Notes under the pieces: model-generated
What the model saw: the letters and a program-made list of their open reading frames with translations, nothing else
Told to the model about the DNA's origin: nothing
The model's database searches: none
Shown: positions 37,232 through 49,854 of the stretch, piece by piece
How positions within the stretch are numbered: position 1 is the stretch's first letter
Layout of the letters: every line of letters begins with the position of its first letter
Origin: Dictyostelium discoideum
Lineage: Eukaryota
DNA: 64,000 nt
Reading direction: 5' to 3'
NCBI GenBank assembly: GCA_000004695.1
Contig: CM000153.2
Span: 3,744,001 to 3,808,000 of the forward strand
Made by a program: the position numbers and the translations under genes

Positions 37232-38967
<1,736 letters not shown>

Positions 38968-39043
38968 CTATTTTTTTTTTAAAAAAAAAAACAATTAATA
39001 AATATTAAATAATTAAAATAATAATAGGATAGGGTTAATTTAC

Positions 39044-39192
39044 CTTTACCAGTACCAAAATCAGAGATTTTAGCACAAACTAAATTTTCAATATTATAAG
39101 AAGCCATTAATATATTTTCTGGTTTTAAATCACGATGAATAATATCATTTTCATGTAAATATTCTCCACCTTTTGCTATATCAATTAAATAT
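39044..39192 (-). CDS. RLK-A kinase exon (HRDLKPENIL catalytic loop and DFGTGK)
   Basis: CAG acceptor at 39193-39195 and GTAAAT donor at 39042-39043. Confidence 0.8.
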
Positions 39193-39197
39193 CTGGG

Positions 39198-39228
<31 letters not shown>

Positions 39229-39293
39229 AATATAAATATGAATAAAGAAAATAATATTATTTATAAAAAATTTAATAAAATTAAATTATTTAC

Positions 39294-39700
39294 CTTATCT
39301 TTTGAGGAATTGTTATTTTAATATCTTTTCTATGAATTAAATCATTTAATGTACCTAATGGATAAAATTCAGTAACAATACCAAAGTTTTGATTAAAGAA
39401 TAAACAACCAGTTAGCTTTACAATATTTGGATGTTCTAATTTATCCATTAAACTAACTTCCCTTTGAATTTCAAAATGATTAAAAGTACCAAGTCTAAAT
39501 AATTTAACGGCTATTGATTGTTCTCTCCATAATCCAGAATAAACTACACCAAATGTACCTTCAGCTATATATGATTTAAGTATAATTTCATCGAAATCTA
39601 GATTTGGTGATGATTCACCCTCTATATGGATATAAAGAAAAGTTGACCATTTACAACTTCCATCAAATGATTCTATACATACTCCAATCTTTTCTAAATA
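39294..39700 (-). CDS. RLK-A kinase exon (subdomains I-V: AEGTFGVVYSGLWREQSIAVK..HPNIVKL)
   Basis: TATAG acceptor at 39701-39705 and GTAAAT donor at 39292-39293. The three kinase exons total 2292 nt and stay in frame. Confidence 0.75.
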
Positions 39701-39746
39701 CTATAATTTAAAATTTAATAAAATTAATAAAATTTAATAAATCATA

Positions 39747-39812
<66 letters not shown>

Positions 39813-39821
39813 TTTACTTAC

Positions 39822-43260
<3,439 letters not shown>

Positions 43261-43331
43261 CTATAAAAAAAAAAAAAAAAGTTGTTAGGATCACTATTTA
43301 TTTGAAAAAAAATAAATAATAACAGATATAC

Positions 43332-43562
43332 CTTTTGTGACTGCAATATTTGCTTTTAATTTTGGTACACCACTAAATGAAAGTGGTATAAAATTTTCAG
43401 CATTCTTATTATTCGGTATAGTATTATTACATATATCAGGATAGTACAGATTTTGAAAATTTAAATTATCATCTATATCAATTGGTTTTCCTGAAAATAG
43501 TTGAAATTTATCTATTCTATTTAAATTATAATATTCTTTTGGTGTATTTATTATTATGTTAC
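43332..43562 (-). CDS. RLK-A exon 2 (ectodomain N-terminal part)
   Basis: AAAG acceptor and GTATAT donor; homologous to RLK-B exon 2 (..LYYPDIC..). Confidence 0.55.
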
Positions 43563-43622
43563 CTTTAATAAAATTGAAAAGTTAGTAGAGGTTTTTTAAC
43601 CGAAAAATATATCAATAATTAC

Positions 43623-43680
43623 CTTTGGAAAAGATATTTATGCTCAAACATAAAATTAACACTTTGAGAAGTAATCCCAT
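43623..43680 (-). CDS. RLK-A exon 1 (signal peptide MGLLLKVLILCLSINIFSK)
   Basis: ATG at 43678-43680; GTAATT donor at 43621-43622. Confidence 0.55.
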
Positions 43681-44416: not shown

Positions 44417-44465
44417 ATGAAATATCTTTGGTTATCTTTGTTAACTTTTTCAATTATTTTAAAGT
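44417..44465 (+). CDS. Secreted paralogue of the RLK ectodomain N-terminal module, exon 1 (signal peptide MKYLWLSLLTFSIILK)
   Basis: ATG at 44417; GTAATT donor at 44466. Confidence 0.55.
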
Positions 44466-44551
44466 GTAATTATTAATTCCTTACAGAATTTTTCATTTTT
44501 AAAAGGATGATACTAATACTCTTTTTATTTTTTTTAATGATAATATTATAG

Positions 44552-45603
44552 ATTCGTATTGTCAAGAAATATACACATTTGATTGGTCATCTCCACGTGT
44601 CAATATTAATGGACACTCACATTTTAAAGTTGATTACTATCCAGGAACTACCAATGCAAATTATAAGGGTGACTTTTTTCCAGATGTAGAGTCAAATCCA
44701 AATGTAAAGAAATATTATTTCACAGCAGATTGTACCATCGATTCAAATACAGATTTCTCTATTCCAGGTTTTATTACACCGGCTTTGAATAAAACAGATA
44801 ATCCTTTTCCACTTATTACAAATTATAATTCAGTTTTAATTGTACCTTATGGAATGACAGTTACAATCAGTGGTTACATTCAACCAATTCTAACGTTATT
44901 AATTAAGGGTAAGGTTGTCCTCAAACCAACTGTAGTAACCAGATATTGGGCTGGTAAAACCATTATATTTCCAACAGGTGTATTCGAATCAGCTCCAACA
45001 TCATTAGCTTTCAACCATTCAATTAAATTTTATAGTCCCTCATATTGGGAGTTTCCAGAGTGGGACCCACTTCAAACATCAACATTTATTTCATTGGGTG
45101 GCACTGTTACTCTCACTGGTTTGAATTCAGATTCTATGTGGACAGGTAGAAATAGTTCATTCACATCATATGGTGGAACCTTTTTAAATACCCCATTCCC
45201 CTTCGACACTGCTAACAAACCTGTATTCAAAATGGGTGGAACAAGAGATACATTTGGTAATATCAATTATGTAATGAATAATTATTATACCTCATTTAGC
45301 CCATCCACAGGTCCGAATTTTTTAGAAGATACAAGTTTTGCTGGTGCAGGTTACATCCTTATGCGTCCATTTACTAAAAACCTTTTCATTACAGGTGAAG
45401 CAAATTGCTCAATGGTATTTACATTAAACTCAACAGTTAATATCCAGAATAGCGTTTTTTTTGATGTTGGCCACACTTCACCAGAATTATTAGATGATAA
45501 TATAATCAGTTCAACCTATAGTGTAACCAAAAGAGGAAATAACATACCAGATAGATACCCAATTACTTTATTACATAACCAAGTTGATAAAAATTATCTC
45601 TAA
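44552..45603 (+). CDS. Secreted paralogue of the RLK ectodomain N-terminal module, exon 2
   Basis: TATAG acceptor at 44547-44551. The two exons total 1101 nt (366 aa). The motif EFPEWDPLQTSTFISLGGTVTLTG parallels RLK-B KFPLDPMGYFPGILALGGSLTLIG. Confidence 0.65.
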
Positions 45604-45730
45604 AAGGTATGTTATCACCAGGATTGGTGGATTTTATTACGACTGTTGTTTTTTTATACAAACCTTTGTAAACAGAGGATACATTATTCTTTGCAAGTAA
45701 ACTATGATATTCTAAATCATTAAGATCAAA
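45563..45730 (-). CDS. RLK-B degenerate kinase remnant, terminal exon (subdomain I-II equivalent without GxGxxG: LAKNNVSSVYKGLYKKTTVVIKS; premature stop)
   Basis: Aligns to RLK-A AEGTFGVVYSGLWREQSIAVKLF. Its 3' end overlaps the opposite-strand gene at 45563-45603. Confidence 0.5.
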   Translation of the reverse strand, partial: FDLNDLEYHSLLAKNNVSSVYKGLYKKTTVVIKSTNPGDNIPFRDNFYQLGYVIK

Positions 45731-45797
45731 CTGAAGAAAATAAAGTGTAATTAGTACGATGTTTAAGATGCTAATAATATATGATTTTTTCACTTAC

Positions 45798-45872
45798 ACG
45801 AGTAGATAATTCTGATTCAACTTGAATATATAGGAATGAATGCATTGACTCTGAACTTTCTATTGTATTAAA
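45798..45872 (-). CDS. RLK-B juxtakinase exon (FNTIESSESMHSFLYIQVESELSTR)
   Basis: Homologous to RLK-A LEKIGVCIESFDGSCKWSTFLYIHIEGESSP; CCAG acceptor and GTAAGT donor. Confidence 0.45.
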
Positions 45873-45954
45873 CTGGACAACAATTTTTTCAAAAAACTAA
45901 AAAATAATGATTAGAATAAAATTTAAAAAGTTTAATGTTAATAGATCTGCTTAC

Positions 45955-46041
45955 TTTGGTGGTGCAATTTAGTGTCAAAGAGAGTTTTACAGCTTTTTCA
46001 GAATTTGGCTCCAATTCAAAATGATAATGATCTGCAAAGAC
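45955..46041 (-). CDS. RLK-B cytoplasmic exon (VFADHYHFELEPNSEKAVKLSLTLNCTTK)
   Basis: Homologous to RLK-A FFEIYPGKTEIGEIDITLICSTK; TTAG acceptor and GTAAGC donor. Confidence 0.45.
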
Positions 46042-46075
46042 CTAATTATTAAAAAAAATTAGTAAATTGTAAACT

Positions 46076-49000
46076 CTAAAAATATTCATGTACATTATAA
46101 CCTACATTACCAGTTCTAGAGTCTCTTGGAAGAATAACTTTAACAAAAATGGTTGAGCTTGAAATATTGGAAATGAGTAAAAAATTTGAGTATTCTTTAA
46201 ATAATGTTGCCTTGAGTCCTTTGAGGTTGAAATCTAAAATCTTACTACTAAATCTCAATGGATTGTTAGGGTCTGAAAGTTCGATTAAATTAGATCTTTC
46301 TAAACGAAACATGAATGATGAGGTTCTAAATGAATCAACAATTGGTAACTTCAAAGGTTTTAGTGAGGTACTTGGTGGAAGTGGGAGTGGTGGAGGTGGA
46401 GGTGAAGAGGAGGGTATTGAATGTTGAGGGGAATCGGGACTAATCTGAGGTGTATCAACTGGTAAAACTATTTGTTCATCAGAATTAATTTCTGGATTTT
46501 CATTTATTGGGTCACATCCAATTTCATTAAAATGTGGATTTAAAGCTTCTGGTGTTTTAGTTTCCAATGGAGGTAGCGGTGAGATTAGTGTATAGGGTGC
46601 AATCTTTGGCTTGACTAGAGATTTTAGAACTGGATGAATTTTGTTTGGTATTTCTTTTTGTTCATTTCTTTGTTGAGGAGTTGCAATACTTTCAGATTTA
46701 TTTTCAATATTTGAATTTGATGTTTCTATTGGTTCAATAGTTGTCATTTCATTTTCTATATCAGCTGATTTAAATTTTTTAAATTTCTTTTTATAAAATA
46801 ATCTTCCAAGCATTACCGATGATGCCACGACTACAGCAGAGCAAATAGGTAACACTATTGTTAATAGATTAAGTGTATTTTCATTGGCTGGTACATCTGG
46901 AATGGCTGTTGGATCAGGTATTATTGGGGGAATGAAAAATATGTTTGATGAATAGATTGCCATTGATGTTAAATAAATATCACCTCTTGTTGTAAATGCT
47001 ATATTAATCTTTTCTAATGAATTGGTATTTTCATATTTGAATGTTATGTTTTTAAATGTTGGACCTTGATTGCTTTGTAATGGTTCTAATACATAAACTG
47101 GCTGATTGTCAATGTAAACTGATAATAGACTAGCATGCTGATCAATTGGTACATGTGTAAAAAACAATTGAATTTGACTGATTGTAGAATTACTGTTGAT
47201 TGCTGTTGTGATGATTACTGGCTCATTGGAATTTAATGATGTTACTCCACTTGAAAATAAACTATTCAATTCGTCAGAAGAAGTGACATTTGGTAAATTT
47301 GGTACATAATTTGAATTTTCAGATATTGTACAGTTGCTATCTGTTTTTGTTTGGCATCCACTTTGAAATAAACTACCATTAACTATAAACTGTTGGTTAG
47401 CAAGGTCAGGATTTGCCATACTCCATCCAGAATAAAATGTATACGTTTTTAATACTGTAATCTGTGGGAAATCTATAATGTACAAGTAGTCTGATGATAG
47501 AGAATTTTTTATTTGAACTCTTACATTTGCTGAACCCTCTTTATTTGGTCCAACCGATACAGGTAATATACATTTATTTGATAATACATTGAAATCGACT
47601 GTTCTATTTTGAATAGAATCATTATCAGAAGTAAAAATACATATAATAATATCTTGAAAAGCATAAATTAATCTAAATTGGATTACTATATTGAAAGTCA
47701 ACCCTGAAATTACTTGGAGTGGAGAATTTGGATAAATTGAAACGATTTTAATTCGATCCAATGTAATTGGGCTACTATAGTAATAAGGTGTTATCACTGA
47801 TCCATAAATTTGATCTTTTAGTTGTTCAACGCTATCATTTGATGGATAGTATAAATATGAATTTTGGATATTTGTTGACAAGGATGAGACATTTTTAATT
47901 ATATCTTTACTTGTTAATGGTAATTCAATGCTAGAATTTATAATATCTAATCTTTTAACGCTACCATCTAATTTAAAATTTTCTGTGGCAATAAAATCCT
48001 TCAATATTAAAAAATTGCTATCTAAATTCGCAACAATTGGACCTATTGCAACTAACCCATTGATCGTATATGTATTTGGTTGATTTCCATTACTATTAGC
48101 TACAAAAAGGTTGAAAATAGTTGAGTTAAATAATGTAATATTAGATATTTTAAAATACTTTGGATTTATTAAATAAAAGTCAACTGGACGTTGAACTGAA
48201 CTTAAAACTGAATCAGAATCATTATAACATGGTGCGTAACAGTCCCTATCAAATGATGTTACACTTGATCTATTCGATATGAAATTAAAGTTAAATATAT
48301 TTAATTGACCAATAAAAGTATCATTTTCTGATTTGATGTTTGGTGAAAGCGAATATAAACCATTACCACCCTCATATCCATAATCCATGCTTTTGGCTGA
48401 TGTATTCAATGATCTTGAATATGGGACCAAAAAGTAATGATTATTTTTTGATCTAATGTTTTCTGTTCCAAATTGGGCTATTAAATTTGAACCTGAATAA
48501 CTTGATATAATATTGGATGTAAATTCAACATTTGATGCGAAAAATACAATTGGTGACCTTCTTGGATCTTTTTCAAAAATAACACAATTTTTAATTACTG
48601 CGTTGTTTGAAAATTCAATGTATAATGAGTTTCTGTATCTTTGGTTGCTACCCTTAATAATATCAGTGACAATGTTTTTATTATTGGGTGAGAATATTAA
48701 TTTGTGATCATTATATTCTTCATTTAATGTTCTACCATCACCATTTATAAAAAAATTTTCAATATGCACTTTAGTATCTCCTGTAATGAAAATTGATGCT
48801 CCAATCGATTCATCAATTTTCTTTACAGAATATCTGTTGGAGATTCCAGTATTCATTTCGTCGATAGTAAATTTTATAAACGCTACTTTCATTACTTTTT
48901 CATTGCCTATTGGTGGGCAACCGCTAATGTTTACTATGGTTCTAGTAGAATCCATAATAATACTGCACAGTGAACCAAGAGGATTTGAATCTGAGAAGAT

Positions 49001-49403
49001 TTTAATTTGATAAAGTTTATTAATATTATCTCCAGGAATACTTGAGAATGGTGGAGAAATCCGTAAAGTTGTTTTTGATAAAACCTGGGCTGAATAAATC
49101 AGTGGGTAATTACCAATAAGTGTTAAAGAACCACCCAATGCAAGAATACCTGGAAAGTAACCCATTGGATCAAGTGGAAATTTTGCGGGATTAATGATGT
49201 TTAAACTATTATATTCTTCAAGAGAGAAGAACAAAAGTCCTCTTTTAATTGTCACCGATCCACCTGGTAAAATAACTAATGAGTGGACCATAAAACTATA
49301 AATACTTTCTGGTATATATAATGAGCCCTCCACAAAAGTGTAAAAATAAAAAAATTTTCAAACATATCTGATTGCGGAAATACGCTAAGGGTCAAATTGG
49401 AAC
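46076..49403 (-). CDS. RLK-B ectodomain (about 900 aa, beta-helix-like repeats), TM and cytoplasmic Pro-rich exon
   Basis: ORF 46076..49333 (1085 aa). TM helix LLTIVLPICSAVVVASSVMLGRLFY followed by KKKFKKFK. A likely GTACAT donor at 46092-46093 is used instead of the in-frame stop at 46076. There is a 1-nt frame offset within the T-runs at 49335-49360 relative to the exon-2 phase. Confidence 0.7.
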
Positions 49404-49470
49404 CTATAAATAAATAATAAATGTTAAAAATAGTTTTAAAAAATATAGATTTATAAATTTATTACAATAC

Positions 49471-49689
49471 CTTTTGTAATTAAAAATTTATTTAATGTAA
49501 GATTAGCGTCTAGGAAAGTATAAAAAGTCATTAGATCACCTTCAGCGTTTGGCAATGCGCCAGCGCATATATCTGGATAATATAAATCTGCATCTGTTTG
49601 TGAAATATTATTTGATTCAATATTTGAATGTGGAAATCTTTTTATACGTTTTAAACCATAATAACCTGGTGGTGTTGTAATAGTTTCTT
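49471..49689 (-). CDS. RLK-B exon 2
   Basis: ETITTPPGYYGLKRIKRF..LYYPDICAGALPNAEG..; AAAAG acceptor and GTATTG donor. Confidence 0.55.
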
Positions 49690-49775
49690 CTTTTAAAAAT
49701 TTAAATATAAGTGTTTGATTTTTTTATTTTATTTTATTTATTTTATTTATTTATTTTTAAATTGCAATACTTTAC

Positions 49776-49854
49776 CATCTGCATTTGAATATAAAATAAA
49801 TATGGATAGAAATATTAATAGTATAATAGTCTTTTTAAAAAAGTTATTTTTCAT
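49776..49854 (-). CDS. RLK-B exon 1 (signal peptide MKNNFFKKTIILLIFLSIFILYSNAD)
   Basis: ATG at 49852-49854; GTAAAG donor at 49774-49775. Confidence 0.55.

Follow-up and report, generated by a model that had tools for sequence, protein, structure and literature searches.

We analysed a 64-kb window of chromosome 4 of Dictyostelium discoideum AX4, a strongly AT-rich stretch of DNA to which all coordinates below refer, and found that the apparent kinase stub at the 3' end of the minus-strand gene gdt5 is very probably the scar of a deletion that truncated two convergent genes, gdt5 itself and a plus-strand neighbour that encodes a secreted protein. The minus-strand open reading frame (ORF) 46076-49333, called RLK-B in an earlier note on this DNA, matches gdt5 (DDB_G0285895 / Q54MK0) at 100%, and UniProt names the product 'Growth-differentiation transition protein 5'. 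The earlier note read RLK-B as a receptor-like protein whose kinase is a dead stub. What remains is indeed a short piece of a kinase N-lobe, non-functional and without the rest of the domain, but the arrangement appears to be the product of one 2,958-bp deletion and not an evolved one.

The deletion is evident from comparison with orthologous loci. The five comparison genomes are two 'D. discoideum' assemblies (~10% diverged from AX4), D. cf. discoideum, D. citrinum, and D. dimigraforme, and their common gene order is aminotransferase, phosphodiesterase-like, SPX-EXS, gdt5, convergent gene, and Gdt3 orthologue. Their gdt5 orthologues encode 1,561-1,574 aa with complete Pfam kinase domains, and the convergent gene, encoding 1,032-1,042 aa, begins 20-41 bp past the gdt5 stop. 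Six other genomes or contigs carry the intact gdt5/convergent-gene pair. By blastn, the window and the orthologous loci are colinear except that the window lacks a single block of 2,953-2,964 bp. Window 59785-45590 corresponds to L001 1-14268 and window 45584-43919 to L001 17233-18862, and the same breakpoints were obtained with L003, L004, and L005. On the gdt5 side, three loci lose homology at 45587-45590 and the L005 match stops at 45625; on the neighbour side, homology begins at 45584-45586.

An almost identical intact allele was found in Logan contigs, and intact-kinase strains are represented by the read sets SRR26869257, SRR26869246, SRR26869266, and SRR28564543. Window 45587-46974 matches contig L006 4408-5795 with 2 mismatches in 1,388 bp (99.86%), and in contigs L006-L008 the identity on the gdt5 side ends exactly at 45587/45586. 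The missing block lies at L006 1450-4407 (2,958 bp). On the plus strand of the window the junction reads ...AACCAAGTTG/ATAAAAATTATCTC..., and the corresponding plus-strand sequences of L006 are ...AACAAAGTTG/CTGTCAAC... on the neighbour side and ...CTCATT/ATAAAAATTATCTC... on the gdt5 side. No microhomology, repeats, or filler were seen at this junction when the window was compared with L006; replication slippage and non-allelic homologous recombination are therefore unsupported as deletion mechanisms, and we infer blunt end-joining.

Past the junction, L006-L008 hold an open kinase frame and a full-length neighbour. The L006 protein is identical to AX4 gdt5 through ...PFRDNFY and then continues as NEIRILSKLRNKNVV...HCDLKLDN...SDFGNSK... 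to ...YYNRKNIK and a stop codon, with 248 more residues, two further introns, and no lesion. The ratio of nonsynonymous to synonymous changes per site (pN/pS) of the kinase is 0.10-0.19 on the L006 lineage, which argues that purifying selection acted on the kinase of the D. discoideum lineage until recently. The deletion itself is recent, because the intact allele is 99.86% identical to AX4 up to the junction, and at least some of the sampled isolates seem to lack it, the species of the Logan samples being assigned solely by this identity over 1.4 kb. The remaining kinase exons, whose discovery elsewhere was to count against the earlier note, thus do exist in a modified sense, at the orthologous position in other strains, including the near-identical allele.

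These comparisons give the following course of events. The ancestral state was a convergent pair, gdt5 and a gene for a ~1,035-aa secreted protein, with stops 20-41 bp apart, and the ancestral gdt5 encoded a signal peptide, a gdt ectodomain, a transmembrane segment, an ASH/MSP-like domain, and a TKL kinase. A single blunt 2,958-bp deletion (45587/45586) on the AX4 haplotype hit both genes at once, removing the gdt5 codons from alphaC to the stop together with two introns, the 26-bp spacer, and the neighbour codons from 363 to the end. Each truncated frame now runs on into the other gene's antisense strand and meets a TAA by chance, giving the apparent stub and the overlap. With the conserved acceptor, a frameshift in exon 3 would additionally stop the translation of AX4 gdt5 after 141 residues, leaving a probable null. 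The deletion with its junction, the ancestral state, the frameshift, and the intron conservation are shown by the sequences themselves; the loss of function and the end-joining are inferred from them.

The exon boundaries of gdt5 were set by DNA alignment to the full-length orthologous loci L001, L003, L004, and L005. The features are as follows.

49854-49776, minus strand: gdt5 exon 1 (signal peptide), matching P0001 and P0029
49689-49471, minus strand: gdt5 exon 2, separated from exon 1 by an intron and matching P0001 and P0029
46103-49403, minus strand: gdt5 exon 3, with the ectodomain, the transmembrane segment, and the proximal cytoplasmic region
46042-46102, minus strand: tail intron 1 (GTAGGT..TTAG), conserved, guanine-plus-cytosine (GC) content 0.16
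45955-46041, minus strand: mini-exon a (VFADHYHFELEPNSEKAVKLSLTLNCTTK), part of the predicted ASH/MSP-like domain
45897-45954, minus strand: tail intron 2 (GTAAGC..TTTTTAG), conserved, GC 0.17
45798-45896, minus strand: mini-exon b (FFEKIVVQFNTIESSESMHSFLYIQVESELSTR), the predicted last two strands of the ASH/MSP-like domain
45731-45797, minus strand: tail intron 3 (GTAAGT..TTCAG), position conserved in all orthologues, GC 0.24
45587-45730, minus strand: gdt5-derived part of mini-exon c (FDLNDLEYHSLLAKNNVSSVYKGLYKKTTVVIKSTNPGDNIPFRDNFY), kinase beta1-beta3
45587/45586: deletion junction, blunt, positioned from L006 and from the switch of homology to L001, L003, L004, and L005
45563-45586, minus strand: gdt5 read-through tail QLGYVIK and TAA 45565-45563, antisense of the neighbour gene

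Three minus-strand coding pieces bounded by GT..AG thus lie downstream of the annotated gdt5 stop (TAG 46078-46076). As the earlier note had proposed, they are colinear with RLK-A, the minus-strand gene at ~37232-43680 whose N-terminus MGLLLKVLILCLSINIFSKGNIIINTPKEYYNL... (MGLLLKVLILCLSINIFSKG...) is that of the Gdt3_ps entry in the supplement of PMC1420674, and they are conserved in the orthologues, with ~90% DNA identity to the full-length ones. The joined translation reads ...PRDSRTGN/VFADHYHFELEPNSEKAVKLSLTLNCTTK/FFEKIVVQFNTIESSESMHSFLYIQVESELSTR/FDLNDLEYHSLLAKNNVSSVYKGLYKKTTVVIKSTNPGDNIPFRDNFYQLGYVIK followed by a stop codon. All three tail introns are kept in position across the four loci, and their GC content is 0.16-0.24 versus 0.26-0.35 in the mini-exons. 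Among the junctions predicted for these exons, the acceptor at 46041, the boundary at 45955, and the pair 45798/45730 stand, and two needed correction. The first donor is at 46103/46102 (GTAGGT), where TGN/VFAD matches the orthologue TGI/VFAD, and 46094/46093 is unsupported; exon b starts at 45896 (TTTTTAG/TTTTTTGAAAAA, FFEKIVVQ...) and not at 45872. The annotated AX4 stop TAG 46078-46076 sits within the conserved tail intron 1, and an identical TAG is present in L001 and L003, where it lies inside an intron spliced from a 1,561-1,562-aa protein.

Kinase sequence was found in the third mini-exon only, because the Pfam kinase domain of the orthologue P0003 (residues 1273-1528, E 6e-49) starts there, residue 1273 being the Y of LEYHNLLAK. 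A kinase N-lobe split over three mini-exons, as previously suggested, is not what the alignment gives. AX4 gdt5 retains ~41 of ~256 kinase residues (beta1-beta3, ~16%), and 84% are gone; its tail matches 0 Pfam families at E<=0.01, neither PF00069 nor PF07714 among them. Compared with a competent kinase, the tail has AKNNVSS in place of GxGxxG and keeps the beta3 lysine, with VVIK at the aligned position. The alphaC glutamate, HRD loop, DFG, activation segment, and C-lobe are missing, and the frame ends 7 codons past the junction, at TAA 45565-45563. The absence of the catalytic loop, DFG, and C-lobe from RLK-B and the early end of its frame were correctly seen before; in the 64-kb window these elements occur only in the paralogue Gdt3_ps. 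Because alphaC and everything beyond it are missing, the stub would be unable to fold, form an N-lobe, or catalyse.

The degenerate glycine loop itself is not a consequence of the truncation. KNNVSS at the GxGxxG position and the VVIK lysine context both read as first described, but they had been taken as degeneration of RLK-B, and the same degenerate loop is present in orthologues with complete kinases. The mini-exon c protein is 100% identical to that of the intact allele L006, which goes on with NEIRILSKL... into a full kinase. The loop reads AKNYLSS, AKNKISS, AKNNISS, or AKSSNSF in complete-kinase orthologues, and in D. citrinum P0005 it is AKNNVSS, equal to the AX4 loop, within the shared stretch LLAKNNVSSVYKG. 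All complete-kinase orthologues lack the three glycines, and all retain VVIK, DFG, the GT.AYLSNE motif, and HRD, which is HCD in two lineages. From this distribution, KNNVSS and VVIK are ancestral to the gdt5 orthologue group, with no signature of decay. The catalytic loop varies within the group: L001 (P0002) and L006 have HCD, and L003, L004, and L005 have HRD. HCD belongs to the non-RD variants, here in a kinase that is constrained in other respects and is also without the glycine-loop glycines.

The segment that mini-exons a and b help to encode shows conservation across the GDT family. The predicted structure of a 148-residue pre-kinase segment is a beta-sandwich with a predicted local distance difference test score (pLDDT) of 86, and Foldseek gives matches to it with probability 1.00 and template-modelling (TM) scores of 0.5-0.6. 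The best structural matches are CEP192 (6fvi), OCRL1 (3qbt), HYDIN (2e6j), and VAP-A (1z9l). Mini-exons a and b are thereby predicted to encode the last strands of an ASH/PapD/MSP-like beta-sandwich. The likeness to ASH, PapD-like, and MSP domains is in fold only, at 8-18% identity, and Pfam gives no sequence-level family match for the segment.

The other half of the scar is the neighbour gene, whose features are as follows.

44417-45586, plus strand: truncated neighbour; exon 1 (signal peptide) spans 44417-44465, the intron spans 44466-44551, and exon 2 begins at 44552
45587-45603, plus strand: neighbour read-through tail (..D KNYL, TAA 45601-45603), antisense of the gdt5 stub

The neighbour starts at ATG 44417 and keeps codons 1-362 of a ~1,035-codon secreted-protein gene. 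Over residues 1-362 its product shares 86% identity with the 1,042-aa L003 protein, after which it ends in DKNYL, so that the 3' two-thirds of the gene (~680 residues), including the C-terminal hydrophobic tail, are lost. The gdt5 read-through stretch 45563-45586 is homologous to the neighbour gene in all loci compared. Beyond the junction, TAA 45565-45563 ends the gdt5 frame after 24 nt, and TAA 45601-45603 ends the neighbour frame after 17 nt. Because both truncated frames read across the scar to a chance TAA, they overlap by 41 nt (45563-45603), and this overlap is mutual read-through and no evolved antisense arrangement. The overlap of the stub with a convergent plus-strand frame had been noticed correctly (41 nt, the plus-strand ORF ending at 45603). 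The view that the 3' end of the plus-strand gene had replaced the rest of the kinase does not hold, as the abutting sequence is codon 362 of a ~1,035-codon gene. The neighbour family is confined to dictyostelids, one D. purpureum member is labelled 'G8 domain-containing', and Pfam matched no family on the neighbour protein.

AX4 gdt5 also carries a second lesion. Exon 3 has a net 1-bp loss at ~49337-49331, where ACACTTTGTGTGGA (T L C V E G) of the orthologues is ACACTTTTGTGGA in AX4, within the conserved ...TLCVEGSL.... From the conserved acceptor 49404/49403, translation runs into a premature TAG (49278-49276) after 141 residues. The annotations bridge the frameshift differently, P0001 with ...ITK/ESIYSF and P0029 with ...ITKG/IGSLYIP. 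The AX4 annotation P0001 drops ~33 conserved codons, and the extra stretch that it splices out has a GC content of 0.32 versus 0.09 in the true intron. Coding-like introns that mask lesions are a pattern described for Dictyostelium kinase pseudogenes (PMC1420674). By the marks used there, AX4 gdt5 shows a frameshift in a conserved region that is masked by a coding-like intron, an ORF cut at an intronic stop, and intron positions common with the orthologues L001, L003, L004, and L005. It is doubtful that a transmembrane gdt5 protein is made in AX4 at all, given the exon 3 frameshift, and the sequence points to AX4 gdt5 as most likely a null allele, that is, an unprocessed pseudogene adjoining Gdt3_ps.

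Substitution patterns were compared between branches. In the large gdt5 exon, pN/pS reaches 0.56-0.59 on the AX4 branch, and the L001 and L003 branches have 0.25-0.33 (Fisher p 0.002 without and 0.046 with polarisation). Three flanking genes have 5-8 AX4-branch changes each, too few for a difference to show (Fisher p 0.29-1), and the retained third of the neighbour has few AX4-specific changes (7 nonsynonymous to 4-9 synonymous). The raised ectodomain pN/pS was considered as proof of pseudogene status and was downgraded, as the deletion is far younger than the AX4 branch. The excess could stem from an older frameshift or from a fast-evolving ectodomain, and it lends weak support to a pseudogene.

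Several points weigh against the reading of AX4 gdt5 as a null left by a deletion. Exon 3 still offers an open frame of 1,085 codons, all splice sites are intact, and part of the gdt5 protein might be made via a cryptic acceptor, as the annotations assume. The raised pN/pS predates the recent deletion and may reflect fast ectodomain evolution. Contigs L006-L009 end short of the frameshift site, so they cover no intact-kinase strain there, and the search for a relocated copy of the missing 3 kb covered the 64-kb window and 24 kb of L002, an independent AX4-like chromosome-level assembly (GCA_054883475.1). The first of these points would suit a functional kinase-less receptor-like or decoy protein with a spliced tail, maybe like the kinase-dead Gdt1, and so would the three tail introns that keep GT..AG at the orthologue positions and the AX4-branch pN/pS that is still <1. 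Gdt1 was scored inactive ('multiple insults'), yet a growth-differentiation phenotype has been reported for it (PMC1420674 and its references 20 and 21). We consider such a protein unlikely in AX4. Signal peptide and ectodomain are put out of frame with each other by the frameshift unless splicing uses a non-conserved acceptor and drops ~33 conserved codons, and the blunt deletion also wrecks the neighbour gene, which is no tailored loss of a domain. The near-identical allele has a complete, constrained kinase, which leaves almost no time for a role of the stub to arise, and Gdt1 retains a complete degenerate kinase fold whereas AX4 gdt5 retains ~16%. The receptor-like-protein reading survives only if the cryptic acceptor restores the frame.

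That the kinase exons and the 3' part of the neighbour survive elsewhere in the AX4 genome after an inversion or translocation is very improbable, even with the sequence searched being the window and 24 kb of L002. Order and orientation of both flanks are ancestral, and what is missing forms a single uninterrupted segment. No other trace of the missing kinase and neighbour parts was found in the 64-kb window than the paralogous Gdt3_ps kinase, at 34-50% amino-acid identity, and the AX4 kinome lists Gdt1, 2, 4, 6, 8, 9, and Gdt3_ps, with no orphan gdt5-like fragment (PMC1420674). A protein search with the missing kinase part returned only distant kinases of <435 aa and did not recover the source protein itself, so it has no bearing on a translocated copy; exact-product look-ups with the AX4 paralogue P0163 and the AX4 exon-3 ORF gave no match. 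An assembly or sequencing artefact of the reference at the junction or the frameshift might be suspected, as the frameshift adjoins a T-run and AT-rich Dictyostelium DNA is error-prone, but we hold it to be extremely improbable. L002 has the same deletion and frameshift, with 0 differences over 45563-49854, so neither is a reference error. The differences between L002 and the window amount to 13 substitutions plus some indels in homopolymer length, none of which falls in gdt5 or in the coding sequence that the neighbour retains, and the annotation of L002 likewise gives a 366-aa neighbour and a truncated gdt5.

The deletion scar can be placed within the GDT family. A signal peptide plus one transmembrane segment, both read off the sequence, and the conserved gdt extracellular domain are present in gdt5; of the C-terminal intracellular eukaryotic protein kinase domain, only ~41 residues are left in AX4. 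gdt5 is 38-47% identical to kinase-bearing GDT paralogues over 66-99% of the query (gdt4 41%) and 34% identical to gdt9. The Dictyostelium kinome paper counts Gdt1, 2, 4, 6, 8, and 9 as kinases, and gdt5 is not among them (PMC1420674). A literature search on gdt5, DDB_G0285895, and the SRR accessions found nothing. The intact gdt5 genes (L006-L008; P0002-P0006) are like AX4 in exon-intron structure, ectodomain, ASH/MSP-like domain, and degenerate loop; unlike AX4, they have alphaC, HRD/HCD, DFG, and the C-lobe, with a full-length convergent gene 20-41 bp on. Gdt1 (Zeng et al., 2000, cited in PMC1420674) resembles AX4 gdt5 in that it is a catalytically incompetent receptor-like member of the GDT family, but it has a full-length degenerate kinase (ALLK, QKTLRARN, DLT) and a reported phenotype, whereas gdt5 has beta1-beta3 and a frameshift. 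Gdt3_ps, a recognised pseudogene, belongs to the same family and cluster and, by our reading, has conserved-ectodomain frameshifts masked by bogus introns as gdt5 does. It differs in its complete kinase domain (IAVK, HRDLKPEN, and DFG; PMC1420674 supplement), whereas gdt5 has lost 84% of the kinase and has a truncated neighbour.

The gdt5 truncation is an ordinary gene-loss event and no new kind of receptor. The AX4 gdt5 model (1,176 aa, with an intronic stop and a bogus intron that bridges the frameshift) misdescribes a deletion allele, and the annotated 366-aa neighbour 'gene' amounts to one-third of the full gene. Studies of the GDT family and of the growth-to-differentiation transition in AX4-derived strains take place in a background without the gdt5 kinase, while at least some other isolates appear to have a complete, selectively constrained one. 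More generally, where convergent ORFs seem to overlap or a domain looks 'vestigial', the cause can be simple read-through past the junction of a deletion.

The neighbour gene shows an unusual pattern of divergence. Its N-terminal third (window 44552-45586; L006 549-1449), compared also with L001, L003, L004, L005, and L011, is hypervariable: the AX4 and L006 haplotypes differ by 7.3% there (synonymous divergence, dS, 0.135) despite 99.9% identity otherwise. L001 and L011 are only ~81% identical to AX4, L006, and L003 in this third and stand nearer to D. citrinum (87%), at odds with the species tree. In the C-terminal two-thirds the values are ordinary (94-95%), and the change occurs around residue 350-400, not far from the AX4 breakpoint at residue 362. 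The ratio of nonsynonymous to synonymous rates (omega) in the N-terminal third is 0.3-0.46, with no signal of positive selection. The pattern suggests old allele classes or introgression. L001 and L011 are the assemblies labelled Dictyostelium discoideum (ACTFIW and ACTFIR). They are 97% identical to each other, but over 14-20 kb, housekeeping genes included, their identity to AX4 is only ~90%. This divergence is far above the usual within-species level, so that they probably represent a cryptic sister lineage, and at only ~90% identity the two genomes were rejected as conspecific intact alleles.

GDT receptor-kinase genes and genes of the ~1,000-aa secreted family are adjacent at paralogous loci too (ACTFIZ_008345/008346, ACTFIY_000498/000499, and ACTFIY_000759/000760; D. 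firmibasis L010 1481-11194), the D. firmibasis pair being in divergent orientation. The GDT gene and the secreted-protein gene may have been duplicated as one unit. Because of this adjacency at a paralogous locus and the hypervariable N-terminal third of the partner, gdt5 and its neighbour could be imagined as a co-inherited receptor/secreted-partner module, an idea to which we give little credence. In the deep, species-tree-incongruent allele classes of the partner, the pair is reminiscent of the polymorphic recognition pair tgrB1/tgrC1. If the module were real, both of its genes would be naturally null in the laboratory lineage AX4.

The adjoining Gdt3_ps has two apparent 1-bp frameshifts in its ectodomain, at window ~42975-42990 and ~42500-42515 (minus strand). 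The first reads ...SAKPVR and stop / LDKAPEWDQ, and at the second the first frame ends in ...VFFGWNTKC and a stop. Both sites are colinear with gdt5 and fit the published pseudogene status, though the kinase motifs are intact. The C-terminal tail of Gdt3_ps (37232-38914, minus strand) holds several hundred Asn-rich residues with NDNSNNY-type repeats, which give rise to long spurious ORFs on both strands.

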